From positions 76,037 to 140,036 of the forward strand of contig CAZHRT010000001.1 in the NCBI GenBank assembly GCA_964534665.1: 64,000 bases of DNA. The letters run 5' to 3'. This stretch comes from an uncultured Methanosarcinales archaeon (GTDB taxonomy: Archaea; Nanobdellota; Nanobdellia; Woesearchaeales; JAHJBD01). Every line of letters starts with the position of its first letter. The stretch's first letter is position 1. The notes under the pieces are model-generated. The model was not told the origin of the DNA. It made no database searches and was given only the letters and a program-made list of their open reading frames with translations. Position numbers and translations under genes: made by a program. Shown one piece after another: positions 2,444-64,000 of the stretch.

Positions 2444-2569
2444 TGCGGGAGACGAGGTTCGAACTCGCGCATCCACTAAGGAACTAGGCCTTTGATGGCG
2501 AATAAACGCAACGCGTTTACTTTGCTTATATCCTCAACCTAGCGCATTTGACCACTCTGCCACTCCCGC
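2444..2569 (-). tRNA. tRNA-Leu (anticodon GAG) with ~40-nt intron in anticodon loop
   Basis: Revcomp GCGGGAG TG GCA GAGTGGTCAAA TGC G CTAGG TTGAGG[intron ATATAAGC...AAAGG]CCTAG, long variable arm, GCGAG TTCGAAC CTCGT, CTCCCGC A. Perfect 7-bp acceptor, class II variable arm. Confidence 0.75.
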
Positions 2570-5222: not shown

Positions 5223-5350
5223 GGTGGCGATAGTATAACTTGGCTAGTACCCAGGACTGTGGACCAAGCTTTCGGGCAGGATAGATATCCTGGAGTCCGG
5301 GAAGATAGAAAATTTATTCTATCTCGGCAATTCAAATCCCGGTCGCCACC
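5223..5350 (+). tRNA. tRNA-His (anticodon GTG) with two introns (anticodon loop and T-arm)
   Basis: G(-1) GTGGCGA TA GTAT..GTAC C CAGGA CTGTGG[intron]A TCCTG GAGT CCGGG[intron AAGATAG...GGCAA]TTCAAAT CCCGG TCGCCAC C. G-1:C73 pair and GUG anticodon are His hallmarks. TTTATAA box about 25 nt upstream. Confidence 0.7.
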
Positions 5351-6051
5351 CTTCTTTTCATTATGTACCTTTCTAATAATTCTTTTTTATGATTTATAGC
5401 TATATATCGAATAACAAACTCACGAAAAAAGGTAATATTCTTAGAAGATAAACTAAATTCTGTAACACACCCTCTGCTATTGAAAGTATTTCCAACAAAC
5501 ACATTTTGTTTTTCTCTGGTTATGGAACTAACACCACACTTCAAGAAATTCTTAATACTCTCTTCTAATTTAAATAATCTTCTCCTGCTATGTACCCTTA
5601 TACAACATTGAGGATATTTTGGCCTCTTAATCCTCACATCACCGTCTCCATCAATTACTCCTGCCAAATATGAACCAAATAATGCAGAGTTCTTCAAAAT
5701 CCAATCCGGTGGATGAACTTGCTTAAAATCTATTTTTAATTTGCAAAATAATTTTAATAAATTTTTGCATCCAAACTTATAATCATATCTCAAAAATCCT
5801 TTTTTATCAGTTAATTTAAACAAACAGCCTTTTAAACCAAAGATCTTTTGCGTAATATTTCTAAATTTATCCTGCATCGAAAGTGATTTTTTCCCAACTC
5901 CTAAAACAACAAAATATCTTTTTCTATTAATGGACTGCACATGTTGCACTTTGAAATAACCATCACTCTGAACAACACCTACCCAATAAGCAAAATCAGG
6001 GCTATTAACGCATCTTTCATAGATTTCTTGATTTAATATCTTTGAATTCAT
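5332..6051 (-). CDS. LAGLIDADG-family homing endonuclease-like protein (two motifs, single-chain type), free-standing
   Basis: Motif 1 FAYWVGVVQSDGYF and motif 2 YLAGVIDGDGDV both keep the catalytic Asp. 3' end overlaps tRNA-His by 19 nt on the opposite strand. Confidence 0.75.
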   Translation of the reverse strand: MNSKILNQEIYERCVNSPDFAYWVGVVQSDGYFKVQHVQSINRKRYFVVLGVGKKSLSMQDKFRNITQKIFGLKGCLFKLTDKKGFLRYDYKFGCKNLLKLFCKLKIDFKQVHPPDWILKNSALFGSYLAGVIDGDGDVRIKRPKYPQCCIRVHSRRRLFKLEESIKNFLKCGVSSITREKQNVFVGNTFNSRGCVTEFSLSSKNITFFREFVIRYIAINHKKELLERYIMKRRVATGI

Positions 6052-28723: not shown

Positions 28724-30052
28724 ATGCCTAAAAAAGGAATTGTACCGTTATATTATGTTGTAATGGCACACCCAAATGATGGAACTGTTGTTCCAATGCC
28801 TCCATCACAGTTTGCTATTGCTGAAGTAGCTTCACGTACAAGACAAGAATTAACAGATTTATTAGCACAAATTAACACAAGATTCTTAGATGGTTCAAAC
28901 GATTTACCATTTCTAAAACAAGCATGGGAACAAGATTTCAGAGGTCAAAAAGCAGAAAGCGCTTTTACTATTGCAGACCTAGAACATGCAGTAAAATGTG
29001 AATTAAGACCTGCTGCAAGACATGTTGTTTATAGCGGAGAGAGTATTCCGTCTTATAATTTAGTTAGACAAGAAGCATTTGGTAATGGGGAATTAGAAAC
29101 AAGAAAAGGTATGATGAAATCAGCATCACATCACGACCAAGCATCATTATCTATAAAAGCAATTCAAAGTGGTGTAGGAAAAGAAGCAGGAAAGTATAGG
29201 GATGTTACATTTAGGGCACCATTCCTAATAGAAGATGGTGGTGAAGTATTCATTAATCCTGCATACCTTGCAGATTGCACTTGTAGGGCACACAGTAAAC
29301 AAGTTGCTAGAGATTTAAGAACACCACAAAGAAATACCTATTTAGTATGCCACCACATTGCTGCTGGAATAAGAGAATTATATCTAGAAAAAGAAAGAAT
29401 TGTTCCGATAAGAATTAAAGGGTTAAGCAATAGAAGTTTAAGAGGACAAAGAGGAGCAGTTCTTAACCCATATAACTTACATGAAAATCCAGAACTTGCT
29501 TTAGAAGCAGTTGTAAGAAGATTTGTATTTGGCCATAAACTTAGCGATATAGACAGATCATTAATGGATGAAGACATTTTCTCAACCCAATATCAAGATT
29601 TAAGAAATTCTAAACCTGGACAATTAAGAAGAGAAGTTGTTCAATCTACACAAAACTTTCCAGGAGTATATGGCAAAATTAAAGAAGAAATGATCTCTGC
29701 ACTTACAGAACATGGATATGAATATTTAGGAAATGCAATTTCATTTAGAGACACAGAATATGAAACAGTCTCAAAAGTATTCGGAAATAGGCATAGTGGC
29801 AAAATGATACATATACTATATGATCCTTCAGTTGGTATAAACAGCCCTCATTTCTTATTAAAACTCAGACCAGGACAAGTAGACACCCAATATGGTGATC
29901 CTTTAAATCAACTGCCAGACAACCCAGTAGCGTGTGTAAACAGGCCCTTTTTAGAAACAGATGATATGACTGGTGTTGATAGAGTATCTTTAGTAAAAAC
30001 ACCAGTTAGCATACTAACAGTAAATGCCAGAAAACAATTATATACAGAATAA
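28724..30052 (+). CDS. Hypothetical protein (442 aa), compositionally atypical (R/Q/H/A-rich, locally higher GC)
   Basis: MPKKGIVPLYYVVMAHPNDGTVVPMPPSQF... no recognised motif. Directly adjacent to a tRNA gene. Confidence 0.5.
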   Translation: MPKKGIVPLYYVVMAHPNDGTVVPMPPSQFAIAEVASRTRQELTDLLAQINTRFLDGSNDLPFLKQAWEQDFRGQKAESAFTIADLEHAVKCELRPAARHVVYSGESIPSYNLVRQEAFGNGELETRKGMMKSASHHDQASLSIKAIQSGVGKEAGKYRDVTFRAPFLIEDGGEVFINPAYLADCTCRAHSKQVARDLRTPQRNTYLVCHHIAAGIRELYLEKERIVPIRIKGLSNRSLRGQRGAVLNPYNLHENPELALEAVVRRFVFGHKLSDIDRSLMDEDIFSTQYQDLRNSKPGQLRREVVQSTQNFPGVYGKIKEEMISALTEHGYEYLGNAISFRDTEYETVSKVFGNRHSGKMIHILYDPSVGINSPHFLLKLRPGQVDTQYGDPLNQLPDNPVACVNRPFLETDDMTGVDRVSLVKTPVSILTVNARKQLYTE

Positions 30053-36036: not shown

Positions 36037-37521
36037 ATGCTAGATAAAGAGACTGCTTTAAAATATTATGGAAGAGAAGATGTTCAAAAAGCAATAGTTA
36101 AACATGCAAAAAATAAAGAAATTGCTGTTAGATTTAACGATTTCTTTGGAAAAAGACCAGACACCCTCAAATACCCTCGTGATGTATTAGAATTAGCAAA
36201 ACAAGGTGCAACTTCTTTTCACTGTTCAGAAGAATTATGGGAAAATCCATTACATATTACCTCAAGTATGAAAAAAAAAGATGTAGAGGAACTCAGAATT
36301 GGTTGGGACATTGTTCTCGACATTGACTGCCCATATTGGAACCTTGCTAAAATTACAACTTGGTTATTAATAAAAACATTAAAAGACCTCCATGTTAATT
36401 CAATTGCAGTTAAATTTTCAGGTAACAAAGGATTCCATATTGGGGTTCCATTCGAAGCATTACCTCAAACAATAGGAGAAATAAAAACAAAAGATATGTT
36501 TCCTGAAGCTGCAAGAAACATTGCAAGTTATTTATTAGACTACATTAAAAATAAACAAATACAAGTTAAAGATGACGGCAACATAATTTTCGGAAACAAA
36601 TTTAAAATTTCTTTTCAAAAATTAAAAGAATCCACAGGTAAAGATATCGACGAACTAACTGAAAAATTCTGTTCTGATTGTAACAACAAAGTAAAAGGCA
36701 ACATAACTGACTCTTCAACAGAATTTGTATGTAAACATTGCGAATCAAGAATAAGTAGCAAAGAAGATTATGTAAAATGTCCAAAATGTAATATTTTTAT
36801 GGAAAAGTTTCAAGAAAAAAAATCATTATGTAAATGTGGCTCAAATTCATATTACAGAACATTTAATCCTTTATCAATAATCGAAGTGGATACCATACTA
36901 ATTTCAAGTAGACACCTTTATAGAATGCCATTTTCTTTACATGAAAAGTCTGGTTTAGCGTCAATACCAATAGATCCAGACAAGATCTTAACTTTTGATA
37001 AAAAATTAGCAAAACCAGAATATGTAATAACAAATAAAGAATTTATTGATAGAAATATTGAATCTTCAAATGCATTGGAGGCTGCAATCGCTTATCAACA
37101 AGAAAAACCAAAAGAAGAAGCAACTAAGAACTTTGAAGCACCAGAAGAAGCTGTTCCTGAAGATTTATTTCCACCTTGTATAAAAAAAGTGTTAGGTGGA
37201 GTAGAAGACGGAAGAAAACGTGCAGTGTTTATTTTAACTAATTTCTTAGTAAGTGTTGGATGGAGTTATGATATGATTGACACTCGACTAAAAGAATGGA
37301 ATGAAAATAATTCCGAGCCTTTAAGAGAAGTATACATTAATGGTCAAACAAGATATCACAAACAAAATCAAAAAAAGATTCTTCCACCAAACTGTGCTAA
37401 CCAAATGTATTACAAAGACCTTTTGATATGCCTACCTGATAATTTATGTAAAAGTATCAAGAATCCTGTAAATTATGCTATTAGAAAAGCAAGATATCTA
37501 AACAAAAAGGCAAAATCATGA
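36037..37521 (+). CDS. priS: DNA primase, catalytic small subunit PriS with C-terminal Cys-rich extension (probable PriS-PriL-CTD fusion)
   Basis: Archaeo-eukaryotic primase motifs: IVLDIDC (DxD), SGNKGFHIG, Zn knuckle CSDCNNK...CKHC. C-terminal about 130 aa has 4 spaced Cys (CIKK...CANQ...C..C) like the PriL Fe-S domain. Confidence 0.75.
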   Translation: MLDKETALKYYGREDVQKAIVKHAKNKEIAVRFNDFFGKRPDTLKYPRDVLELAKQGATSFHCSEELWENPLHITSSMKKKDVEELRIGWDIVLDIDCPYWNLAKITTWLLIKTLKDLHVNSIAVKFSGNKGFHIGVPFEALPQTIGEIKTKDMFPEAARNIASYLLDYIKNKQIQVKDDGNIIFGNKFKISFQKLKESTGKDIDELTEKFCSDCNNKVKGNITDSSTEFVCKHCESRISSKEDYVKCPKCNIFMEKFQEKKSLCKCGSNSYYRTFNPLSIIEVDTILISSRHLYRMPFSLHEKSGLASIPIDPDKILTFDKKLAKPEYVITNKEFIDRNIESSNALEAAIAYQQEKPKEEATKNFEAPEEAVPEDLFPPCIKKVLGGVEDGRKRAVFILTNFLVSVGWSYDMIDTRLKEWNENNSEPLREVYINGQTRYHKQNQKKILPPNCANQMYYKDLLICLPDNLCKSIKNPVNYAIRKARYLNKKAKS

Positions 37522-52484: not shown

Positions 52485-52637
52485 TTATCTTTCTTTTATT
52501 ATTAAATACACCCCAGCAGCTACAGCAGCCAAAGACAATAAAGATCTACTTATATAAATAAAAGGTATTTGTATATATTGCAATACTGCTAAAATTAATA
52601 AAATTACACCTAACCAAAAACCAATTCCTCTTTTCAT
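52485..52637 (-). CDS. Small membrane protein (50 aa), not in ORF track
   Basis: MKRGIGFWLGVILLILAVLQYIQIPFIYISRSLLSLAAVAAGVYLIIKER. ATG overlaps pheT TGA (ATGA). Confidence 0.35.
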   Translation of the reverse strand: MKRGIGFWLGVILLILAVLQYIQIPFIYISRSLLSLAAVAAGVYLIIKER

Positions 52638-54286
52638 TGTATCACCTTATATATTTCTGTTAAATTAATCTCAAATGCAACCGCAGGCATTTCTAATCCA
52701 CAATTGTCCAAAACAATTGGTATAATTTCACCAATAAAACCTACTTTTTTTCCATCAACAATAACTCTTCCAACCCTACCAGGAATAAATGTATCATGAT
52801 CTACTTCTTCAATTTCATATTGAACATTTAACATTCTCAATAAATAATCAAGTGCTTGTTTAGCTTCAGTATAATCTGCTTTTTCATTAGCAGAAACATA
52901 TGCCAATCTTTCATAATCAATAACCCATTCACCCTTCTTAACAGTAACAAGTCCTTGCTCAAATATTTTCTGAGGATATTCAACATGCTTATTCTTAGAT
53001 AAACAATCCATTAATATAGGAATTAACCATGTTCGAACAACAGAATAGCTTTCTGACATATATGCTTTAATTTCAACAGTTCCAAAATCTTTAAGATTCA
53101 TTTTGTTATACAATACCTCTTTGCTAGATAATATTGGGCTCATTATCTCTTGACAGCCAAGACCTGCCATTACATCCCTTGCTTTATCAATAAGTTTCAC
53201 AATAGGTAAACTGTTACCAATAGTAAAACTAGTCAATGGTTTTTCATCAATATTATCATACCCATACATTATTCCAATATCTTCAATAACGTCAACTTGA
53301 TGTAAAATATCTTTTCTATAATGTGGGATAGAAACCTTCCCATTTGTATAATTATAACCTGCTTTTTCAACTAGCTTCTTCATATCAGATTCTTTTAATT
53401 CTAAACCTAACAAAGACTTAATCTTAGAATTATCAACTTTAATAGTCTCATTAAACATATGAGGTGTAGTTATTTTTTTATCTGGATAATTTATATCAAC
53501 AGATTCTATTTTAAATCCTCTTTCAAAAAAGGCTTGTGCAAATATATTAGTTGCTAAATTTAATGAATCTGAATCAAGACCAGTTGCTTCAAAGAATAAA
53601 TCTTCTTCACCTTCATCAACCCTACCAGTATTATTTGAATTAATAACTGGTGGAAAACTTAAAACTTCACCATTGTCATCAATTAATATTGGATATTTCT
53701 TAAAGCCTTCAAGAATCCAAGCATATTCCTTACCCTTAGGATGACTTTCTAAAATCTCTCCAGGAGTCATTTCACGTTTAAAATCTAAAGGTGTAAAAGA
53801 AATAGATTCTGGATCTATAGCCTTATAATATACTGGAAACTTAATTTTCTTGTATGAATATATCCCAATTGCAACCTTCTGTCTTTTTCTGCCATAATTA
53901 TCACAAAGTTTTTCTTGTAATTGTATTAATTGTTTTATTAAATAATCGTCAATCTTCTTACCTTTAGCAATAAACGCAGAGATGTATGGCCTAACCTTAC
54001 TAACAGAACTATCAACCTTAACACTATATCCTGATTTCTTAAAATCAAGTTTTGCAATACCTTTATCTAAACCAAGTATCCTTCTAAATAACCTTGCAAC
54101 CCCTTCAATACTCCAAAGATAAGGTAAATTAGTATCACCAAAATCAATCTTAATTTCATCTGTTTTTTCATTATAACCTTCATAGTCACCCTTACCATAA
54201 GCTGCTAATTCTTCTACTTGCTCTAGTTTAAGCTTCTTTCCAACTAGCTTTTCTAAATCCTTTAATGCAAATGTTATTGTTGGCAT
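52634..54286 (-). CDS. pheT: Phenylalanyl-tRNA synthetase beta subunit (archaeal type)
   Basis: MPTITFALKDLEKLVGKKL...B3/4 and B5 domains. Adjacent to pheS. Confidence 0.85.
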   Translation of the reverse strand: MPTITFALKDLEKLVGKKLKLEQVEELAAYGKGDYEGYNEKTDEIKIDFGDTNLPYLWSIEGVARLFRRILGLDKGIAKLDFKKSGYSVKVDSSVSKVRPYISAFIAKGKKIDDYLIKQLIQLQEKLCDNYGRKRQKVAIGIYSYKKIKFPVYYKAIDPESISFTPLDFKREMTPGEILESHPKGKEYAWILEGFKKYPILIDDNGEVLSFPPVINSNNTGRVDEGEEDLFFEATGLDSDSLNLATNIFAQAFFERGFKIESVDINYPDKKITTPHMFNETIKVDNSKIKSLLGLELKESDMKKLVEKAGYNYTNGKVSIPHYRKDILHQVDVIEDIGIMYGYDNIDEKPLTSFTIGNSLPIVKLIDKARDVMAGLGCQEIMSPILSSKEVLYNKMNLKDFGTVEIKAYMSESYSVVRTWLIPILMDCLSKNKHVEYPQKIFEQGLVTVKKGEWVIDYERLAYVSANEKADYTEAKQALDYLLRMLNVQYEIEEVDHDTFIPGRVGRVIVDGKKVGFIGEIIPIVLDNCGLEMPAVAFEINLTEIYKVIQ

Positions 54287-55812
54287 TATATTATCCTCAC
54301 ATTTCTCATAAAATCAAGATCATGACTAAACAATTTTCTAATATCTTTAATTCCTAATTTAAACATACCCAATCTATCAATACCAAGTCCCCAAGCCAAA
54401 ACTGATACATCTTTTCCAAGCAAAGGTTTAACAAGTTCTGGCCTAAATATCCCTGAACCACCAAGTTCAATCCACCCTAAATCTGGATGTTTAGCAAATA
54501 ACTCAGCAGATGGTTCTGTAAACGGAAAATAAGCTGGCTTAATCTTAATTTGCTCTGTTTCTGCAAATTCTTCTGCAAACATTTTAAGTAACCCTTTCAA
54601 ATGCCTAAAATCTAACCCTTCTTCAACTACAATACCTTCTGTTTGATAAAAATCACAATTATGTGTGGCGTCAATTACATCAGATCTAAAACATCTAGTA
54701 ACACCAAAATATTTACCAGGAATTTTTAGATCAGGTGAACTTAACATTCTTGCAGAACATGCAGTCCCTTGCGTCCTTAACAAAGTATTGTGTGTTCTTT
54801 TAACATCAAATTCATATTGCCACCCTTTTGATCCGGTTCCAAATCCTTTTTCATGTGCTTCTTTAACATTCTTAACCAACTTAGGATCAAGTTTCAAACT
54901 TGCCGGATCTTTAACATAATAAGCATCATGAATATCTCGTGCACTATGAAATTGTGGCATAAACAAAGAATCCATATTCCAAAATTCTGTTTCTACTATT
55001 GGACCAGTCATCTCACTAAACCCCATTGAAATAAATTTTTGTCTAACTTGATCCAAAAACCTTCTATAATGTTGTTTTTTACCTGCCCAAATCTTAGGCA
55101 CATTAATTTTAACATCATATCTTCTAAACTTAGTTTTTTTCCAACTTCCTTTAGAAATCATTTCTTTTGTTAATCTATCAAGAACATTCCCTATCTTAAT
55201 TCCTGATTCAATTATTTCCTTACCAAGATCTGTTAATTCTGCTTCCTTTTCTTTATCAATAACAATCTTAACAATATCTTTTCTTTTCCTAAGATTATCT
55301 AAACAAAACTTTTCTTCATCTTTTAAAGATTCAAGTTCAATAGGAAAATCCTTTGCAAGAAAATCTTCTTCTAAGAAACCTTTTTCTAAAAGTTTCTTTC
55401 CTTGGTCTAATATTTTAACTTTAATATCTCCACGTTCTTTAGATATTAAAACAGCAGCCTTACTTCGAAGTACACCCAAACAAATACTTAATTCATCTTT
55501 AGCAAGACCAGACTTCTTCATTATTTCACTAAAACCTAATGTTTTAATCTTAACCGATTCAAGAAATCTCTTCTCAGGTAACCCAATTTTAGCATATTTA
55601 ATTCCGTTATCTCCCAATTCTATTAATTCTTTAACTTCCTCAGATAACTTAATTATTTCTTTATTTTGTAGCCATTGTAAAGCGCGCATAACTTCAACTT
55701 CTTTTAACCCAGATGCTTTAACAATATCTGCAAAAACAGAACATTTGTCTAATACTGGAAGAACCTTTTGTTCTAACGGATGTAATCCATCAATAATCTT
55801 ATTTAAGTCCAT
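54286..55812 (-). CDS. pheS: Phenylalanyl-tRNA synthetase alpha subunit
   Basis: Class II core: FRPELVKPLLG, GLGIDRLGM, N-terminal winged-helix repeats. Confidence 0.85.
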   Translation of the reverse strand: MDLNKIIDGLHPLEQKVLPVLDKCSVFADIVKASGLKEVEVMRALQWLQNKEIIKLSEEVKELIELGDNGIKYAKIGLPEKRFLESVKIKTLGFSEIMKKSGLAKDELSICLGVLRSKAAVLISKERGDIKVKILDQGKKLLEKGFLEEDFLAKDFPIELESLKDEEKFCLDNLRKRKDIVKIVIDKEKEAELTDLGKEIIESGIKIGNVLDRLTKEMISKGSWKKTKFRRYDVKINVPKIWAGKKQHYRRFLDQVRQKFISMGFSEMTGPIVETEFWNMDSLFMPQFHSARDIHDAYYVKDPASLKLDPKLVKNVKEAHEKGFGTGSKGWQYEFDVKRTHNTLLRTQGTACSARMLSSPDLKIPGKYFGVTRCFRSDVIDATHNCDFYQTEGIVVEEGLDFRHLKGLLKMFAEEFAETEQIKIKPAYFPFTEPSAELFAKHPDLGWIELGGSGIFRPELVKPLLGKDVSVLAWGLGIDRLGMFKLGIKDIRKLFSHDLDFMRNVRII

Positions 55813-55855
55813 TTTTATTATTCAATAAATCAATTATAACATTTATATATTTTTC

Positions 55856-56665
55856 TTAATAAACTCTAGGATAAGACCCTAAAATCCTCAAATATGCGAC
55901 TTTCTTAATTTTTTCAAATGATTCCTTAACAGATTCGTCTTCTTCGTGCCCTTCAAAATCTATATAGAATACATAATCACCTAATTTTCCTTTTGATGGC
56001 CTTGATTCTATCTTTGTAAGATTGATCTTATTATTTGCAAATTCTCCAAGCAAACTATACAATAGTCCTGGTTTATCAGATTGTGGATAAATTGTAACAC
56101 TTGTCCTATCTTTCCCAGTTTTTTTAGCCTTACCCCTACTTATAACAATAAACCTAGTTACATTATGACTACTATCTTGGATATTCTTTTTTATTATATC
56201 CAAAGAATATATCTTCGCAGCTGCGTTTGGTATTATTGCAGCTCTTGTAGGGTCATTTTTCCTAGATACAGTCTCTGCAGACTTTGAATTTGAACTTGTT
56301 CTAGATATGTCTGCGTTCGGAAAATATTTTCTAATGAACTTTTCACATTGTGACAAGGTTTGTGGATGAGCATATATCTTCCGTATTTGGTCAACTTTTC
56401 CAATTCCTGCAAGATTATGTTTAATTGGTAGCAAAAGCTCAGCAATAATATTAAAATCAAATTCCATTAAGGAATCTAATGTCGAACTTACTGGTCCAGA
56501 TACTGAATTCTCAATAGGTACAATACCAATATCAGCTTCCAAATTCTTAATTGCATCAAAAACATACCAAATAGTTTTCTTAAAAACTAATTCAGCATCT
56601 TTATCATACTTTAATGCAGCTTCGTTACTAAAAGAACCTTTTGGACCTAAAACTGCAACCTTCAT
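55856..56665 (-). CDS. pheA: Prephenate dehydratase (PDT plus ACT domains)
   Basis: MKVAVLGPKGSFSNEAA... PDT fold with TRF (TRFIVI) ligand-binding region and ACT domain. Confidence 0.8.
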   Translation of the reverse strand: MKVAVLGPKGSFSNEAALKYDKDAELVFKKTIWYVFDAIKNLEADIGIVPIENSVSGPVSSTLDSLMEFDFNIIAELLLPIKHNLAGIGKVDQIRKIYAHPQTLSQCEKFIRKYFPNADISRTSSNSKSAETVSRKNDPTRAAIIPNAAAKIYSLDIIKKNIQDSSHNVTRFIVISRGKAKKTGKDRTSVTIYPQSDKPGLLYSLLGEFANNKINLTKIESRPSKGKLGDYVFYIDFEGHEEDESVKESFEKIKKVAYLRILGSYPRVY

Positions 56666-57498
56666 TTCTTCACCATTTTCTCTATTAAATAATCCGATTC
56701 TTTCTCAGCTTCTTTTTTAAAATCTCCAAGATAATCAGCTGACTCTTTAAAATAATTAATAAAACCTTCTCTATCCTTTTTAACAATTGTTTTTAACAAT
56801 TTCTCAGAAGAATCTAAATATGCTTTAATCGCATTCTTAACTTCAGGATTTAATATTTCTATATCTGCATAAAGCTCAGGATCTTGATTAAGAATTCTTC
56901 CTAACATATCTAACCTTAATTTATAGATTGGCGATGCGTAATCAAGACTATCCTTAATATCTATTTCCATCTCTTTTAATGCATGTGAAACAGTAATCGT
57001 ACTAAAATGTACCAAGCCTTGAATAACAGCCATCATCTTATCATGTTTTTCAGGTGTAGCAACCTTAATCTTGGCTCCATTTTTATCTAATAAGTCCTTT
57101 AACCAGGGCAACCATTTTTTTCCTCTAGCAGGACACAATACTATAGACTGCCCTTTAATTGAACCAACACCTGGCCCAAAAACAGGGTGTGTTCCAATAA
57201 CTTCACACTTAGAATGATTTAACATTGCTTCAACAGGCGCAATCTTAATTGAAGTAAGATCTATTAACAAAGATTCTTCTTTAACTAGGGGACCTATTTT
57301 CTTTATTACATCAACAGTAGATTTAATTGGAACTGTAATAACAACAACATCTGATTGTGAAACACAATCCTCAACAGAAAGTTCTGTTGATCTGCTAGCT
57401 ATCAAAACCTTACAATTATTTTGTTCAAATAATCTCTTGAAGAACTGGCCCATTCCGCCAGTACCTCCAATGATTCCAATAGTTACTTTATTTTTCAT
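56662..57498 (-). CDS. tyrA: Prephenate dehydrogenase
   Basis: Rossmann IGIIGGTGGMGQFF, PDH C-domain. Confidence 0.75.
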   Translation of the reverse strand: MKNKVTIGIIGGTGGMGQFFKRLFEQNNCKVLIASRSTELSVEDCVSQSDVVVITVPIKSTVDVIKKIGPLVKEESLLIDLTSIKIAPVEAMLNHSKCEVIGTHPVFGPGVGSIKGQSIVLCPARGKKWLPWLKDLLDKNGAKIKVATPEKHDKMMAVIQGLVHFSTITVSHALKEMEIDIKDSLDYASPIYKLRLDMLGRILNQDPELYADIEILNPEVKNAIKAYLDSSEKLLKTIVKKDREGFINYFKESADYLGDFKKEAEKESDYLIEKMVKK

Positions 57499-57546
57499 TT
57501 TCCTTTAATTTCTTTGAAAATCAAAGATTTTTAAAGCCTTCAAAAT

Positions 57547-58707
57547 CTAATCATTAGATTTCAAAGACGTCCATTTATCATCTAACTTTACAATGCCATC
57601 ATAAGCCCTTGACATATATAATGAATCAAGAACTGCACAAGCAGCCATTGCTTCAGCTACAACATATATCCTTGCAAGTAATGTAGGATCTCTTCTTGTA
57701 ACTGGATCAAGTTCTTCTTCTTTCATTTTTTTCATATTAACTGTAGTCTGTTTAACAGATACTGTTGGTGTTGGTTTAATTGCAATACGCATTACAATAT
57801 CTTCACCTATTGTCATGCCACCAAGTGTTCCACCACAATTATTTGTCTTAAACCTTATTTTACCATCTTCTCTTAAATAAGGTTGATCATTAAATTCTGA
57901 GCCTTTCATATTTCCGCATTTGAAACCTACACCAAATTCAATGCCTTTAACAGCACCAATTCCCATTATTGCTGAACTTAAGGTTGCTGAAATCTTATCA
58001 AAAACAGGTTCACCTAATCCGCCTGGAAGATTATGAATCCTTAATTCAATTATTCCTCCTGCTGTATCCCCTTCTTTTTTTATTTCTAAGACTCTTTCTT
58101 CCATTTTTTCTGCAGCTTCTAGGTCTGGACAGTTAATTTCTGTCTTTCTATAGTTTTTCTTTGCTTCTTCATACGTAATATTTTCTTTAGCCTTAATATC
58201 CATACATTGAACTGTATATGCTAAGACATCTATTCCTTCATTAGCAAGTATATGTTTTGCAACTGCACCTGCTGCTACTCTTGTTACTGTTTCTCTTCCA
58301 GATGCTCTTCCTGCTCCGCACCAATCTTGAGATTCACCATACTTATAGAAGAATGGTAATGTTGCGTGTCCTGGTCTAAAAAGGTCTTTATATTGTCCAT
58401 ATTGGTCAATATGTACTTTTTGAGTATCAACATTATAAATCATTATTCCTAAGGGTGCACCAGTTGTAACACCATCTTGCCCATATCCTGCAAATATTTC
58501 ACATTGGTCAAGTTCTTTTCTTGGACTGTTTAATTTCCCAACACCAGGTTTTCTTTTATCTAACTCTGCTTGAATATCCTCTCTTGTTATTTTTAATCCA
58601 GCTGGAACACCATCAACAATTACTGAAAGTCCAGATCCTTTGCCTTTCCCGTAAGATTCACCACAAGTAGTAATTCTAAATAGTCTTCCAAATGTATTTC
58701 CCATCAT
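57547..58707 (-). CDS. aroC: Chorismate synthase
   Basis: MMGNTFGRLFRITTCGESYGKGKG..., GRASGRETV. Confidence 0.9.
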   Translation of the reverse strand: MMGNTFGRLFRITTCGESYGKGKGSGLSVIVDGVPAGLKITREDIQAELDKRKPGVGKLNSPRKELDQCEIFAGYGQDGVTTGAPLGIMIYNVDTQKVHIDQYGQYKDLFRPGHATLPFFYKYGESQDWCGAGRASGRETVTRVAAGAVAKHILANEGIDVLAYTVQCMDIKAKENITYEEAKKNYRKTEINCPDLEAAEKMEERVLEIKKEGDTAGGIIELRIHNLPGGLGEPVFDKISATLSSAIMGIGAVKGIEFGVGFKCGNMKGSEFNDQPYLREDGKIRFKTNNCGGTLGGMTIGEDIVMRIAIKPTPTVSVKQTTVNMKKMKEEELDPVTRRDPTLLARIYVVAEAMAACAVLDSLYMSRAYDGIVKLDDKWTSLKSND

Positions 58708-60080
58708 TTTTTTTCTTCCTCCATATTTGCTCCTATACTCTTCATAAATTCCAAGTAATTAGGAAATGTAACACTTACAGCCTCGGCTGTTGTCACCTCT
58801 GTTTTTCCTTCTGCAATTAGCCCTGCTAAACTTAGTGCCATTACAACTCTATGATCATGATGGCCCTGAACTTTTGCCCCTTTAAGTTGGCTTTGCATTA
58901 TTTGTAAACCATCGTGCAATTCTAAAACATCTACACCCATTTTAGATAGTTCCTTAGCCATAACTTTAATCCTATCTGTTTCCTTAATTCTTGCATGCGC
59001 AACATTCTTTATAATAGTTTTCCCTTTAGCAAAACAGCCTAATATTGATACTGCAGGTAATGCATCAGGGGTTTGATTTAAATCTAATTCACAACCCACT
59101 AATTCTTTCCCTTTAATTCTAATACCTTGTTCTTCAATAGTAATATCTGCGCCCATCTTTCTCAAATATTCAATAATTTGCTTATCACCTTGGATATCTT
59201 CTAAATCTAAACCCTTAAGCAATACATTTGATTTTGTAATTGCTGCAGCAACTAATGGAAAAGCAGCTGAACTCCAATCAGACGGAATTATAATTTCCAT
59301 TGGCTTGTACTTTTGTCCCCCCTTTATTTTAAAATGTCTTAACCCATCTGCTTCATAATTAATTTCTTGTTGATTAAGATATTTAAGAGTCATTTCAACA
59401 TAAGGTTCCTCACATAAATTGAGCACAATAATCTCAGTATCATTCTCAACTAACGGACAACTTATCAATAAACTAGACAGATATTGTGAAGACCTACAAT
59501 CTATTTCAGTCTTACCACCTTTCATTGGACCAGTTACTTCTATTGGTGGACACCCATCATTATTTTGTGATAAAACACTTGCCCCTAAATTATTTAATGC
59601 ATTTAGTAAAGGTTGTACTGGCCTAGTCCTTAATGAATCATCCCCATCTAAAATAACTTGAAAATCTCCTAAAGCAACAACTGAAGTTAACAAATTAATT
59701 GATGTTCCACTATTTAACATGTCAAGAACTATCTGATTAGGAGGGTCTTGAGCATTCTCAGAAATCAGCTCGTCAGATTCAGATGAAACAGGTGTTTTGT
59801 TAGTGCCGATTTCAGATGTGTTAAGTGGTTCTTCTGGTTTTTTGGGTTTACTTCCAAAACCTTCAATAATTAACTTCCCATCAAGTTCTTCTATCTTTGC
59901 TCCAAGTGCTTTACACCCTTCAATTGCAGCTTTTGTATCTGCAGACATTAAAGGATTCTCTAAAACAGATTTTCCTTCAGCAAGTGAAGCAATTATCACA
60001 GATCTAATTGTATGAGACTTAGAACTAGGTATAACAACTTCCCCGTTCAATTCTTCTGTTTTTTTAATTACTAATTTCAT
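58704..60080 (-). CDS. aroA: 3-phosphoshikimate 1-carboxyvinyltransferase (EPSP synthase) with low-complexity insertion
   Basis: VIPSSKSHTIR, LRTRPV, C-terminal RIKETDR. About 45-aa S/E/P-rich insert (SKPKKPEEPLNTSEIGTNKTPVSSESDE...). Confidence 0.85.
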   Translation of the reverse strand: MKLVIKKTEELNGEVVIPSSKSHTIRSVIIASLAEGKSVLENPLMSADTKAAIEGCKALGAKIEELDGKLIIEGFGSKPKKPEEPLNTSEIGTNKTPVSSESDELISENAQDPPNQIVLDMLNSGTSINLLTSVVALGDFQVILDGDDSLRTRPVQPLLNALNNLGASVLSQNNDGCPPIEVTGPMKGGKTEIDCRSSQYLSSLLISCPLVENDTEIIVLNLCEEPYVEMTLKYLNQQEINYEADGLRHFKIKGGQKYKPMEIIIPSDWSSAAFPLVAAAITKSNVLLKGLDLEDIQGDKQIIEYLRKMGADITIEEQGIRIKGKELVGCELDLNQTPDALPAVSILGCFAKGKTIIKNVAHARIKETDRIKVMAKELSKMGVDVLELHDGLQIMQSQLKGAKVQGHHDHRVVMALSLAGLIAEGKTEVTTAEAVSVTFPNYLEFMKSIGANMEEEKK

Positions 60081-61471
60081 TTTAACCAGATATTAAATTG
60101 TTCCATAGCTTGATTAACAAACATTTCTTCTCCTGAAATTACTTTACACCTATTGGCCTGTGCGTCCTTTAATAATTTTGTATACTTTGGATTATATATC
60201 ACATCCATAACAACCATACCTTTCAATAATTTCTTATCAATAGGTGATTTACTTGTTTTCGGTGCCATCCCAACTGATGTTGTATTGATTAAACAATCAA
60301 CATTAAGATGTGTAATATTTAATCCATCATATGCACAATGCAGTTGTTTAGCTAAAAGTCTAGCTTTTTCTAAGGTCCTATTTAAGATTATTAAACTTCC
60401 ACCTTTTTTCTTAATCCCAAAAGCAATAGCTTTAGCTGCACCACCTGCACCAATTATTACAAAATCTTTATTCTTAATTTTGATACGTTTTTCAATTGCT
60501 TTTACAGCGCCAACCGAATCTGTATTGTAACCAATCAACTGATTACCTTTTTTAACAACTGTATTAACAGCATCAATCTGCTTTGCAGTACTTGAAACTT
60601 TATCAAGTTGTTTCATGATCGTTTTTTTATGTGGCATAGTTATACTCAACCCATTAATAATTGATTTAAACCCATTAACAAAACCGCCAACATCATCTAC
60701 TAAAAAATTAACATAAACTGCATTAATTCTTCTCTTATCAAACATATTATTATGAATCAAATAACCTTTAGATTTTGAAACAGGATTTCCAACTAACCCA
60801 AAGATTTTTGTTTTACTATTAAGTTTATCAACTTTGTAAACATTTTTTAATTTATCAACTGTTATTTGACCAGAGGCTGATTCTTTCCCTTCTTCCAAAC
60901 TACCAAAAGTAAGTAAAGCACCTAAAGCAGGAGATAAAATTCTACTAATTTCACCTTTTTCACCCATACACAACCCTATTATCTTTTTCTTATCTTTTAC
61001 AGCTTTTTTAATAAGGTCAAATATAATCAAGTTATCATTAATTGTGTTTGCAAAAGCTACAATCTTAATAATATCTGGATTTAATCTCTTAATTTTCTTA
61101 TAAGTCTCTTGAATCTGTTTCTTATCTGTTCTCTTAAAATTATGCCATGAAACAATAATCTTAGATTTCCCTTTAATCAAACTTTTAATTACATTCTCAT
61201 TAGTTCTTGCCTCAACATCAACATACTCAACACCTAAATCAACAGCTTTTCTTAACAATTCAATCCTTTTCTTTTCATCAAGCTTATACTTACCACCTTC
61301 ATCTTTTCTTCTAATGGTAATAATTTTTTTATTTGGAATTGCAATCAACTGTTCTAACTTTTTTTCATTTAAATTTTGAATGTAATCCAGTCTTAACTCT
61401 ATTAAACCTGCTTTTCGCGCTTGTTTTTTCGCTTCTTCAACACTTGAAGCAATTATTGGTACTGCTATCAT
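60077..61471 (-). CDS. aroDE: Bifunctional 3-dehydroquinate dehydratase (type I) / shikimate 5-dehydrogenase fusion
   Basis: N-terminal AroD-I (IAVPIIASSVEEA...ELRLDY). C-terminal AroE (IIGAGGAAKAIAF Rossmann). Confidence 0.8.
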   Translation of the reverse strand: MIAVPIIASSVEEAKKQARKAGLIELRLDYIQNLNEKKLEQLIAIPNKKIITIRRKDEGGKYKLDEKKRIELLRKAVDLGVEYVDVEARTNENVIKSLIKGKSKIIVSWHNFKRTDKKQIQETYKKIKRLNPDIIKIVAFANTINDNLIIFDLIKKAVKDKKKIIGLCMGEKGEISRILSPALGALLTFGSLEEGKESASGQITVDKLKNVYKVDKLNSKTKIFGLVGNPVSKSKGYLIHNNMFDKRRINAVYVNFLVDDVGGFVNGFKSIINGLSITMPHKKTIMKQLDKVSSTAKQIDAVNTVVKKGNQLIGYNTDSVGAVKAIEKRIKIKNKDFVIIGAGGAAKAIAFGIKKKGGSLIILNRTLEKARLLAKQLHCAYDGLNITHLNVDCLINTTSVGMAPKTSKSPIDKKLLKGMVVMDVIYNPKYTKLLKDAQANRCKVISGEEMFVNQAMEQFNIWLK

Positions 61472-61473
61472 AT

Positions 61474-62547
61474 TTATTCCAATACTTTTAATACCATTTT
61501 TTCATCAACTTTCTTATTGTAAACTGCTTTTCCAATTCCGTCCAAAAGCACATATTCAGCAACTCCATCTCTAGCTTTTTTATCTAAAGTAGTTGCTTTA
61601 ATTATTTCTTGAGCCAAAATTCCTTTAGGAACATCAATTGGAAGTTTAGCACTTTTAATCACTGATTTAATCATATCTAAATCATCTTGACTTAACATAC
61701 CTAATTCTAATGATATCTCAGCCTCAGCAACCATACCAATCGCAACCGCCTCACCATGATTTAATTTAAAATTGCTTAAATTTTCAACTGCGTGCCCAAT
61801 TGTATGTCCAAAATTAACTATTTTTCTTAATCCACCTTCTTTTTCATCAAGCTCAACAATTTTTCCTTTGATTTCACAATTTCTTTTAATCAATTCTGAT
61901 AAAACTGTTTCATCTTTACTATAAATCCTATCAACATTTTTTTTAATAAAATCTAACAAATCTTTATCCCTAATTAAAGCGTGCTTAATTATTTCAGCCA
62001 TTCCATTTGCCATTTGTCTTTCTGGTAAAGATTTCAATACAGAAACATCTATCAAAACTAACTTTGGTTGATGAAAAGCACCAATTAAATTCTTTCCAAG
62101 TGAATGATCAATTGCTGTTTTTCCACCAACAGAGCTATCTACATCAGCTAACAAAGTTGTAGGCACTTGAACATAAGGAATTCCCCTAAATAATGTAGCT
62201 GCAACAAAACCGGCAATATCTCCAACAACACCCCCACCTAAAGCGATTATTGCTGAATCTCTACCTGCACCAAGTGAAATGAGTTTGTCTTCAAGTTCTG
62301 CTTTAACCTTTCTGGATTTACTTTTCTCACCAGCTATAAAACTAATTAATTCTGCTTGTAATCCTGACTTTCTTAAATCTTTTAATAAGCCTTCACCAAA
62401 AAGTTTTCTAGTAGTTTCATCAGTAATCACAAAATACTTTTCAGCAATTTTTCTCTTAACTAATTCATCAGCCAAACTTAGTTTACTACCTATCAAAATA
62501 TCATACGAGTTATCAATCTGTTTTTTTAGATTAACCTTAACTTTCAT
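61474..62547 (-). CDS. aroB: 3-dehydroquinate synthase (bacterial-type AroB)
   Basis: [46 protein letters not shown]. Confidence 0.85.
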
Positions 62548-63557
62548 AGTTTCCTCCCAACAGCTTCTGCTATAGGTTTTAATTCTTTCATTAATTTATC
62601 AAATTCTTCAGTTGACAATGTTTGATCTGCATCTGAGACTGCTTTATCTGGGTGTGGGTGAACTTCAATTATAATCCCATCTGCTCCAGCAGCAACTGAT
62701 GCTTTTGTAACCGGTCCAACAAGACTCTTTTTTCCTGTTGCATGGCTTGGGTCAACAATAACTGGAAGATGTGTTAATTCTTTTAATACGGGAATTGCAT
62801 TAATATCCAAAGTATTTCTAGTGTAAGTCTCAAATGTTCTTATTCCTCGTTCACATAACATTACTTCCCTATTGCCTTCTGACATAATATATTCAGCAGC
62901 AAGCAAAAGTTCCTTGTAAGTTGCCCACATGCCTCTTTTAAGCAAAACAGGTTTTTTTACTTTTCCTACTTCTTTTAATAAAGGATAATTTTGCATATTT
63001 CTAGTTCCAATCTGTAAAATATCTGCATATTTTGCAACTAATTCTACATCTCTAACATCCATTACTTCTGTTGCAATCTTTAACCCTGTTGCATCTCTTG
63101 CTTTTGCAAGCAACTTAAGACCTTTTTCACCGAGACCTTGGAATGAATATGGTCCTGTCCTTGGTTTAAATGCTCCACCCCTCAATATTTGAGCACCAGA
63201 TTTTTTAACAGCTTTTGCAGTTGCCATTATTTGTTCTTCATCTTCAACAGCACAAGGTCCAGCCATAACAATAACCTTATCTCCACCAATAATCAAATCT
63301 CCAACCCTAACTTTACTTGGTTTCTCCTTAGCCTCTTTACTAACTAATTTGTAAGGTTGTAAGACTTCCATAACTTTCTCAACACTATCCATTGCCTTAA
63401 GAGAAGCAATAGGTAATACCCTTTCATCTCCAATAATCGCTATAACTGTTCTTTCTGTACCATGCAATGGAACAGGCTTTAATTTAGCACCTTCTATTTT
63501 TTTCAATACATCATCAATTTCTTGTTTTTTTGCGTTTTTCTTCATTACAACTATCAT
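62544..63557 (-). CDS. aroF: DAHP synthase (class I-beta, KDO8PS-like TIM barrel) with N-terminal regulatory domain
   Basis: N-terminal about 80-aa ferredoxin-like domain ([17 protein letters not shown]...) then [33 protein letters not shown]. Confidence 0.8.
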
Positions 63558-63871
63558 TTTATCCCTCGCTTTTTCTGATTTTTTATCTTTTTAGATTTTT
63601 CTTATATTTTCTCTTTTTATGTAGAGATTTGTCTCTATTATTTTTAAACTTAGTGGTCTCCCCTGTATTAAAACCGGGAGACTAACAAAAATAAAAGAAA
63701 CTTACATCTAGAAAAAACTCTTTTAACATAACTATATTTGTTCTTTCTAATGCTATCATAATAATATAGTAATGGGCTTTAATATTTAAAGTTTTTGTGT
63801 TTTTTACAGTAAATAATCTATTTTTTAAGAGAAAAGTATATAAATGTCTAGCCGCCTCATTAATCGTGCAA

Positions 63872-64000
63872 ATGATATCAAAATTTCCAATAGACATAAG
63901 CGGTTATAAACCACTAAAATTTAATATTTCTAAAGAATCATATGATAAAAAACAATTAGAAACAAATATCCAGATAGTTAGAGATGTAATTGTATTCTTT
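63872..64000 (+). CDS. Hypothetical protein, N-terminal fragment (runs off window)
   Basis: MISKFPIDISGYKPLKFNISKESYDKKQLETNIQIVRDVIVFF... open to window end. Confidence 0.3.
   Translation, partial: MISKFPIDISGYKPLKFNISKESYDKKQLETNIQIVRDVIVFF

Follow-up and report, generated by a model that had tools for sequence, protein, structure and literature searches.

The aro operon of Thermococcus kodakarensis has been characterized as a route from fructose 6-phosphate and glyceraldehyde 3-phosphate via erythrose 4-phosphate (E4P) and 3-deoxy-D-arabino-heptulosonic acid 7-phosphate (DAHP) to chorismate (PMC6737238). In the Thermococcales, a palindrome upstream of the transcription factor B recognition element (BRE) and TATA box controls the aro operon, and separate Tyr and Phe genes follow the same logic (PMC6737238). 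We describe here a cluster of aro, tyr and phe genes on the minus strand of a 64,000-nucleotide stretch of contig CAZHRT010000001.1 (the whole stretch is referred to below as the window), which resembles the Thermococcales aro (TK0271-TK0262) and tyr-phe operons in starting from E4P and a DAHP synthase (DAHPS) of type I-beta and in ending at chorismate (PMC6737238). Unlike the Thermococcales, the window holds the aro genes, the tyr/phe genes and pheS-pheT (pheST) in one string without a shikimate kinase (SK). In the Thermococcales, aroD and aroE are separate genes and a GHMP-type kinase lies inside the operon, whose order is transketolase-DAHPS-aroB-aroD-aroE-kinase-aroA-aroC.

The DAHPS route is not alien to Archaea, since an aro operon of DAHPS type is present in the Thermococcales. 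The combination of DAHPS with AroB is well documented in Archaea, and structures of the archaeal DAHPS are available from Pyrococcus furiosus and Aeropyrum pernix (1ZCO and 1VS1). The statement in the original prediction that Archaea typically use 2-amino-3,7-dideoxy-D-threo-hept-6-ulosonate (ADH) synthase and 3-dehydroquinate synthase II (DHQS-II) was thus over-generalized, given the use of DAHPS and E4P by the Thermococcales operon (PMC6737238). Compact, DAHPS-containing and pheS-linked aro clusters are also found in other ultra-small organisms, the bacteria of the candidate phyla radiation (CPR), but there AroE either stands alone or is joined to SK, PheS is of the bacterial kind, and none of the remaining enzymes is sister to its archaeal counterpart. 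A metagenome-assembled genome (MAG) of the Halobacteriota (L089) carries AroA and AroC of the same subfamily as those of the window (55 and 67% identity), likewise adjacent and with no kinase between them; its entry step, however, is a DHQS-II (PF01959) adjoining the pair, whereas that of the window is DAHPS with a classical AroB.

DPANN archaea are usually viewed as host-dependent amino-acid auxotrophs. A near-complete cluster had been called unexpected in such an organism, and it is indeed uncommon, as most Woesearchaeota MAGs in a survey of oxygen-deficient zones were without the shikimate pathway (PMC10936187). We consider it likely that the locus is a supra-operon for aromatic amino acids that is functional and was inherited vertically in a DPANN archaeon of the Woesearchaeales type, and in which an ancestral cluster has undergone an aroA-aroC swap and the kinase is encoded elsewhere. 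The cluster is genuine, well preserved and somewhat unusual for a DPANN archaeon, with clear precedents, and the module swap and the missing kinase are its most interesting aspects. As a DPANN case of an intact and conserved chorismate/Phe/Tyr operon, it indicates that this costly ability has been retained by some marine Woesearchaeales, which bears on their dependence and on possible exchange with partners. The understanding of the pathway itself is unchanged, the enzymes being standard and similar operons being known in Thermococcales and bacteria.

Organization of the cluster and proposed function

The host is a Woesearchaeales-type DPANN archaeon with a small genome. Among species-representative genomes, those closest to it are MAGs that bear the label Nanoarchaeota or Candidatus Woesearchaeota, and the rest of the window includes an archaeal RNase P RNA, ribosomal protein operons, SecY, gyrase A and PCNA. 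Proteins identical to those of the cluster are encoded on 22-23 independent contigs, which come from several metagenomes and reach 262 kb in length. According to Pfam and NCBIfam, nine intact minus-strand open reading frames (ORFs) run from DAHPS through PheT (63557..52634). The contiguous arrangement of aro, tyr and phe genes, overlapping or abutting and continuing into pheS-pheT, had been correctly described from the sequence: all seven biosynthetic ORFs are intact and match the families assigned to them, and each of these enzymes except TyrA passes a curated equivalog or subfamily cut-off. The spacers, from DAHPS to PheT, are -4, +2, -4, -4, +48, -4, +43 and -1 nt, a tight coupling that comprises four 4-nt overlaps and one 1-nt overlap.

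DAHPS (aroF/aroG; 62544..63557, minus strand, 337 aa; PF00793 and PF18152) reaches 513.6 bits against NCBIfam NF006421 (cut-off 335) and E=1e-83 against Pfam PF00793. Its N-terminal ferredoxin-like domain (FXD) is recognized by PF18152 over residues 1-67 (73.6 bits, cut-off 27), and the same span aligns with residues 1-67 of the Thermotoga maritima enzyme (1RZM). The two proteins align end to end with 363 bits, so that the T. maritima DAHPS (1RZM/3PG9) is collinear with that of the window over its full length and shares both the ferredoxin-like domain and the metal ligands; the Cys/His/Glu/Asp ligands are kept, as judged from the established ligand positions of 1RZM. The FXD of the Woesearchaeal clade is nonetheless only 13-46% identical to the sampled bacterial FXD domains. 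The Thermococcales enzymes differ in having no FXD (PMC6737238), and no homologue of Tar was seen in the window.

The following genes, all on the minus strand, encode a classical 3-dehydroquinate synthase, AroB (61474..62547, 357 aa; PF01761 and PF24621; TIGR01357, 381.5 bits against a cut-off of 305), and an AroD-AroE fusion (60077..61471, 464 aa; PF01487, PF08501 and PF01488), in which residues 1-212 form a type I dehydroquinase and residues 222-462 a shikimate dehydrogenase. Each domain of the fusion exceeds its own cut-off (TIGR01093, 171.6/139.3; TIGR00507, 229.4/200.2), while the whole protein does not belong to the curated bifunctional equivalog NF006802 (252.7 bits against a cut-off of 598). 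The fusion is common to the window, Woesearchaeota and a Micrarchaeota MAG, it forms a DPANN-wide clade in its tree, and it represents an independent, DPANN-type fusion clade. AroA, an EPSP (5-enolpyruvylshikimate 3-phosphate) synthase of the "type Y" subfamily (58704..60080, 458 aa; TIGR01356, 430 against 287), has Escherichia coli 1G6S as its best PDB match with 210 bits, compared with 342 bits for the AroA of the relative L007. It is neither a canonical class I (E. coli type) enzyme, its loop reading MLNSGTSINL and not LGNAGTAMR, nor CP4-like; the invariant columns K21, S22, R26, N123, G125, R153, D339, K366, E367, R370, H410 and R411 are kept, and with them the catalytic residues (the N-terminal Lys/Ser/Arg motif, Asp, Lys-Glu and His-Arg). 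Chorismate synthase, AroC (57547..58707, 386 aa), passes TIGR00033 (378.3/212.2) and NF003793 (383.4/321).

Prephenate dehydrogenase, TyrA (56662..57498, 278 aa; PF02153 and PF20463), is devoid of ACT and chorismate mutase (CM) domains. No equivalog cut-off is reached, so that its preferred substrate may be either prephenate or arogenate; its top NCBIfam models are PRK08655-type, which is archaeal, and PRK11199, both under their cut-offs; the dehydrogenase domain of the Haemophilus influenzae T-protein (2PV7) is its best PDB match. PheA, a prephenate dehydratase with a C-terminal ACT domain (55856..56665, 269 aa; PF00800 and PF01842; NF008865, 284.6/219), is followed 43 nt downstream by the archaeal Phe-tRNA ligase alpha subunit, PheS (54286..55812; NF003210, 546 bits against 350), and by the archaeal beta subunit, PheT (52634..54286; TIGR00471 pheT_arch, 529 bits against 283).

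Divergently from DAHPS, the first 43 codons of a transketolase gene (63872..64000, plus strand) continue past the window end; on the identical contigs L001-L003 the full-length protein has 635 aa and carries PF00456, PF02779 and PF02780, and it matches NCBIfam transketolase models below their cut-off. Chorismate mutase, whose presence elsewhere had been suggested as worth checking, is found just beyond the window end, about 2.2 kb upstream (window-equivalent position about 65772-66035), as an AroQ protein of 87 aa that passes the TIGR01791 CM_archaeal cut-off.

The T. maritima DAHPS is inhibited by Tyr and Phe. By analogy, the FXD-bearing DAHPS of the window would catalyze the committed step and would probably be feedback-inhibited by these amino acids as well. 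Judging from family membership, the divergent transketolase would supply E4P; AroB, AroD-AroE, a kinase encoded elsewhere, AroA and AroC would lead to chorismate, which the small archaeal-type AroQ would convert to prephenate; and TyrA, together with the ACT-regulated PheA, would yield the keto-acids of Tyr and Phe, an aminotransferase then completing both amino acids. The operon would read through into pheS-pheT, a linkage to pheST that is conserved in Woesearchaeota and has a parallel in the pheS linkage of the CPR clusters.

The same locus in relatives and the aroA-aroC segment

The gene order DAHPS-AroB-AroDE-AroA-SK-AroC-TyrA-PheA-PheS-PheT is found in the Woesearchaeota locus L007, is repeated in L012 with an AroC::CM fusion, and is kept in L008, L009 and L015 with toxin-antitoxin insertions. 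Four of these Woesearchaeota, which we call variant A (UBA9638, L007; NC_groundwater_258, L008; UBA10200, L009; RIFCSP 37_9, L015), agree with the window in locus, order and AroDE fusion, and their DAHPS is 66-74% identical to that of the window; they differ from it in having a canonical class I AroA, an AroK-type kinase and another AroC, with only 32-35% identity in AroA and 43-44% in AroC. In a second arrangement, that of a marine Woesearchaeon (GCA_030750365.1; L087/L088), the gene order equals that of the window, without SK, and split transketolase genes lie directly upstream of DAHPS. The pheA-pheS adjacency is present in both L007 and L087, and Woesearchaeota with no more than 38-65% identity in PheS/PheT have the cluster at this same pheST locus. 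From this synteny, the cluster appears to have stood at the pheST locus already in the common ancestor of several Woesearchaeota.

The identities of the individual proteins to those of the window separate the cluster into two parts. For L007 and L087, respectively, they amount to 74 and 76% (DAHPS), 49 and 51% (AroB), 45 and 53% (AroDE, with 51% for the Micrarchaeota MAG), 54 and 56% (TyrA) and 53 and 58% (PheA), and these values track those of the housekeeping PheS (46 and 65%) and PheT (38 and 64%). AroA (32 and 63%) and AroC (44 and 75%) do not follow them, being 58 and 76% identical to the Omnitrophica proteins, and 57 and 67% to those of Micrarchaeota. In neighbor-joining (NJ) trees, Woesearchaeal monophyly receives bootstraps of 94 (DAHPS), 100 (TyrA) and 67 (PheA), whereas for AroA and AroC the monophyly of all Woesearchaeota has a value of 0, the window proteins falling in a type-Y clade (bootstrap 90 for AroA and 100 for AroC) together with Halobacteriota, Micrarchaeota, Omnitrophota, Elusimicrobiota, Ratteibacteria and Nitrospinota. 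Within the tree of AroC, sequences from Omnitrophica and Ratteibacteria are intermingled with those of Woesearchaeota.

A kinase gene of the AroK/SKI type (PF01202; 168-175 aa) lies exactly between aroA and aroC in L007, L008, L009, L012 and L015. In the window the aroA stop overlaps the aroC start by 4 nt, which leaves no room for the kinase gene of the relatives. The best reading of these comparisons is that an aroA-aroK-aroC segment was replaced in the host lineage, as in the marine relative L087/L088, by an aroA-aroC pair of the other subfamily, AroK being lost from its slot, while DAHPS, AroB, AroD-AroE, TyrA and PheA would descend from the ancestral Woesearchaeal cluster. The locus would thereby offer a concrete example of in-place module replacement within an operon (aroA-aroK-aroC to aroA-aroC), and one of genes shared between ultra-small lineages (DPANN, CPR and Omnitrophota).

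Several further observations concern the related loci themselves. An Omnitrophica contig (L091, GCA_023819225.1, 8001-10440) carries AroA-AroC alongside LigA and type IV pilus genes, hence on a bacterial contig; the two proteins, 58 and 76% identical to those of the window, match them as closely as do the proteins of the nearest relative within the Woesearchaeota. This closeness points to an exchange between the domains that involved ultra-small lineages. In L092 (GCA_016177615.1, 10001-10510), a lone AroK-like kinase gene immediately precedes pheS-pheT, in the same SecY-EMC3-L34e-L14e neighborhood as in the window; any further aro genes are lacking within 10 kb. The kinase also matches a "homoserine kinase" exception model, though below threshold, and may be what is left of an aro cluster since lost, or may have been repurposed. 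In groundwater Woesearchaeota, AroA bears an N-terminal HAD-phosphatase domain, for a total of 670-682 aa (L008, 15185-17233; L009, 14283-16319; L015, 3745-5757), and toxin-antitoxin pairs (NTase/HEPN; UPF0175/PIN-like) are lodged inside the aro cluster. Among bacteria, the CPR MAGs L037, L048, L051, L054, L082, L083 and L029 show a compact DAHPS-PheA-(CM)-AroB-AroA-SK-AroE-AroC order followed by pheS, some with SK-AroE fusions, and four MAGs labelled "uncultured Gammaproteobacteria" (L027, L059, L072 and L075) group with the CPR carriers of DAHPS.

Origin of the cluster and the missing kinase

The original prediction suggested that the cluster is a bacterial-type pathway acquired en bloc. On this reading, the whole DAHPS-to-PheA block would have been taken from a bacterium in one piece, possibly recently, by an otherwise reduced DPANN genome. 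The bacterial affinity holds for part of the cluster. The nearest sampled non-Woesearchaeal DAHPS sequences are bacterial (59-69% identity; 69% barrel identity for WOR-1 and 60-65% for others), the enzyme is sister to a CPR clade (Gottesmanbacteria/Microgenomates; NJ bootstrap 93), and the named members of the best 50%-identity DAHPS clusters are all bacterial, few clusters carrying organism names. The AroK-type kinases of the sister Woesearchaeota also have their nearest outside relatives in Nitrospirota and the anammox bacteria Scalindua and Loosdrechtia (45-48% identity), and similarly compact clusters exist in CPR bacteria, as set out above. The bacterial affinity does not extend to TyrA and CM, which score best against models of archaeal or T-protein type, nor to AroA-AroC, a pair shared with an archaeon that uses DHQS-II. 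Acquisition in one piece is not supported, given the separate history of AroA and AroC, which lie in another clade than those of other Woesearchaeota. Recent transfer was rejected, because the cluster is indistinguishable in composition from the reference genes of the window (GC 0.29-0.35, GC3 0.16-0.22, codon-preference correlation 0.92-0.97), besides being syntenic in relatives. Since the cluster is kept at pheST even where the PheS/PheT of Woesearchaeota have diverged to 38-46% identity, any transfer would predate their divergence. We therefore give very little credence to an en-bloc acquisition; that DAHPS and the sister-lineage AroK have their nearest outside relatives among bacteria suggests instead an ancient inter-domain, bacterial contribution to the cluster. 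In some other lineages, on the best reading, the cluster was eroded or lost, which fits the report of most MAGs lacking the pathway (PMC10936187).

An archaeal origin deserves more weight, although we still judge it unlikely. Under it, the cluster would descend from an aro operon like that of the Thermococcales, the similar clusters and genes of bacteria (CPR, Omnitrophota and others) would have been received from Archaea, and the AroK of the sister lineages would be a secondary bacterial insertion. The E4P-to-chorismate content of the T. kodakarensis operon and its palindrome upstream of BRE/TATA agree with such a descent (PMC6737238), as do the split transketolase genes ahead of DAHPS in L087, the interleaving of Omnitrophica and Ratteibacteria AroC with Woesearchaeota, and the type-Y AroA-AroC beside DHQS-II in the Halobacteriota MAG. 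The position of the P. furiosus DAHPS (1ZCO) speaks against it, since this enzyme does not rank among the 29 closest sequences of the sample, each of which has a barrel identity of at least 60%, and since it clusters with T. maritima, a long way from the Woesearchaeal clade, and so does the lack of an FXD in the Thermococcales enzyme.

A broken pathway, in which loss of the kinase has left a decaying cluster, or one fed shikimate-3-phosphate or other intermediates by a host, is in our view very unlikely. It would account for the want of a kinase in about 84 kb, gapped pathways being common in DPANN (PMC10936187), and for a locus such as L092, eroded to a lone kinase next to pheST. Yet no ORF is disrupted, the scores far exceed the family cut-offs, translational coupling is preserved, and the complete set is retained in two SK-less lineages that share only 51-76% identity. 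AroA and AroC, useless without shikimate-3-phosphate, are the best conserved, AroC being 83-93% identical in close relatives and 75-93% among SK-less relatives; this conservation and the retention of all invariant AroA positions imply purifying selection.

Two sets of observations weigh against the vertically inherited, functional supra-operon that we favor. The first concerns its gaps. The kinase search covered the window and 10 kb on each side, about 84 kb, where the kinase (AroK/AroL or GHMP type), the only one of the seven pathway steps to be missing, was not found: the cluster proteins have no PF01202 or GHMP domain in Pfam, as the original prediction had stated for the cluster; P-loop and GHMP motif expressions applied to all ORFs, and Pfam scans of 20 unassigned window ORFs, brought up no SK; tblastn returned nothing with three Woesearchaeal AroK proteins or with a Methanocaldococcus jannaschii GHMP kinase probe (itself validated by 356 bits against TIGR01920); and inspection of both flanks was equally fruitless. 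A 160-aa ORF beside CM was considered as a candidate and rejected, as it encodes a multi-pass membrane protein. Among the best 120 of 4,411 AroK-profile matches, none is assigned to a contig carrying the cluster. Neither an aromatic aminotransferase nor any trp gene came to light. The second set concerns the trees, which were computed by NJ only, with 100 bootstraps, from a sample retrieved via 8-mer seeds and best-120 lists and hence biased. P. furiosus supplies the sole non-DPANN archaeal DAHPS, the trees of the other enzymes hold no Thermococcales sequences, and non-DPANN archaeal sequences are almost absent overall. AroB finds no resolved placement (bootstrap 2-22), and the trees fix no direction for the exchange of AroA-AroC between Archaea and Bacteria.

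A GHMP-type, unclustered SK is the usual situation in Archaea. From its absence in the searched region, we infer that the kinase of the host is encoded at another place in the genome, most likely as an enzyme of the archaeal GHMP type. In a survey, 45 of 46 archaeal proteomes were without one or two of the pathway enzymes, mostly DAHPS or SK (PMC3018139). Although we deem it quite improbable, the SK-less Woesearchaeota (the host species and the GCA_030750365-like marine lineage) might possess neither AroK nor a GHMP kinase genome-wide, with aroA and aroC under strong selection. If so, a third, unrecognized kind of SK would exist, or shikimate-3-phosphate or a later intermediate would come from a host, and the swap of aroA-aroK-aroC for aroA-aroC would date the change.

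Upstream region, AroA insertion and surroundings

The divergent intergenic region between transketolase and DAHPS contains a palindrome, GTCTCCC-N13-GGGAGAC (63656..63682, minus strand), which is GC-rich, has 7-bp arms and a 13-nt spacer, and occurs as a single copy in the window (0 expected by chance); it is kept, with a wobble-compatible change, in an 87% relative (L006). It lies just upstream of a TATA-like box, TTTAAAAATAATA (63636..63648, minus strand), some 80-90 nt ahead of the start codon (ATG) of DAHPS and also conserved in L006, and a GAGGG Shine-Dalgarno-like motif can be read at about 63565-63569 (minus strand). The position of the palindrome is comparable to that of the Tar site upstream of BRE/TATA in the T. 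kodakarensis aro promoters (PMC6737238). By this analogy, we infer a candidate operator, a lead rather than a result. Rfam gives no family in the DAHPS leader or intergenic region. A gene for a TrmB-family regulator recurs close to the aro/pheST locus in L002, L087 and L092.

AroA carries an insertion, LNTSEIGTNKTPVSSESDELISENAQDPPNQIV (residues 86-118; 59727..59825, minus strand), just before the conserved LDMLNSGTS loop. It had been described as a 45-aa low-complexity segment; the insertion is confirmed, with a length of 33 aa as measured against 49 homologues and a composition rich in S/T/E/N/P but not strictly of low complexity. As all 49 aligned homologues lack it, the closest (71% identity) included, it appears to be species-specific. 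An assembly artefact is ruled out, independent assemblies (including L001 and L004) carrying the same insertion. In an AlphaFold2 model of AroA (mean predicted local distance difference test score, pLDDT, 91.8; predicted template modelling score 0.89), residues 89-112 have a pLDDT <50 and no secondary structure, which indicates a disordered loop, predicted to lie between two strands ahead of the NSGTS loop.

Beyond the window end, the identical contigs also carry genes for a membrane protein, TruD, Dus, a TrmB-family regulator, ACS, Pta and AckA, the last three within 10 kb upstream of the cluster (L002, 1-3807). An ack-pta pair is uncommon in Archaea. Within the window, Rfam detects a tRNA match of 126 nt (2444-2569, minus strand; 45.9 bits), presumably intron-containing, for which ARAGORN made no call. 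A 442-aa ORF (28724-30052, plus strand) has no Pfam match and a local GC of 0.343, compared with about 0.31, and a free-standing LAGLIDADG-like ORF (5332-6051, minus strand) adjoins ribosomal protein genes. The primase subunits PriS and PriL are fused as a single polypeptide (36037-37521, plus strand).

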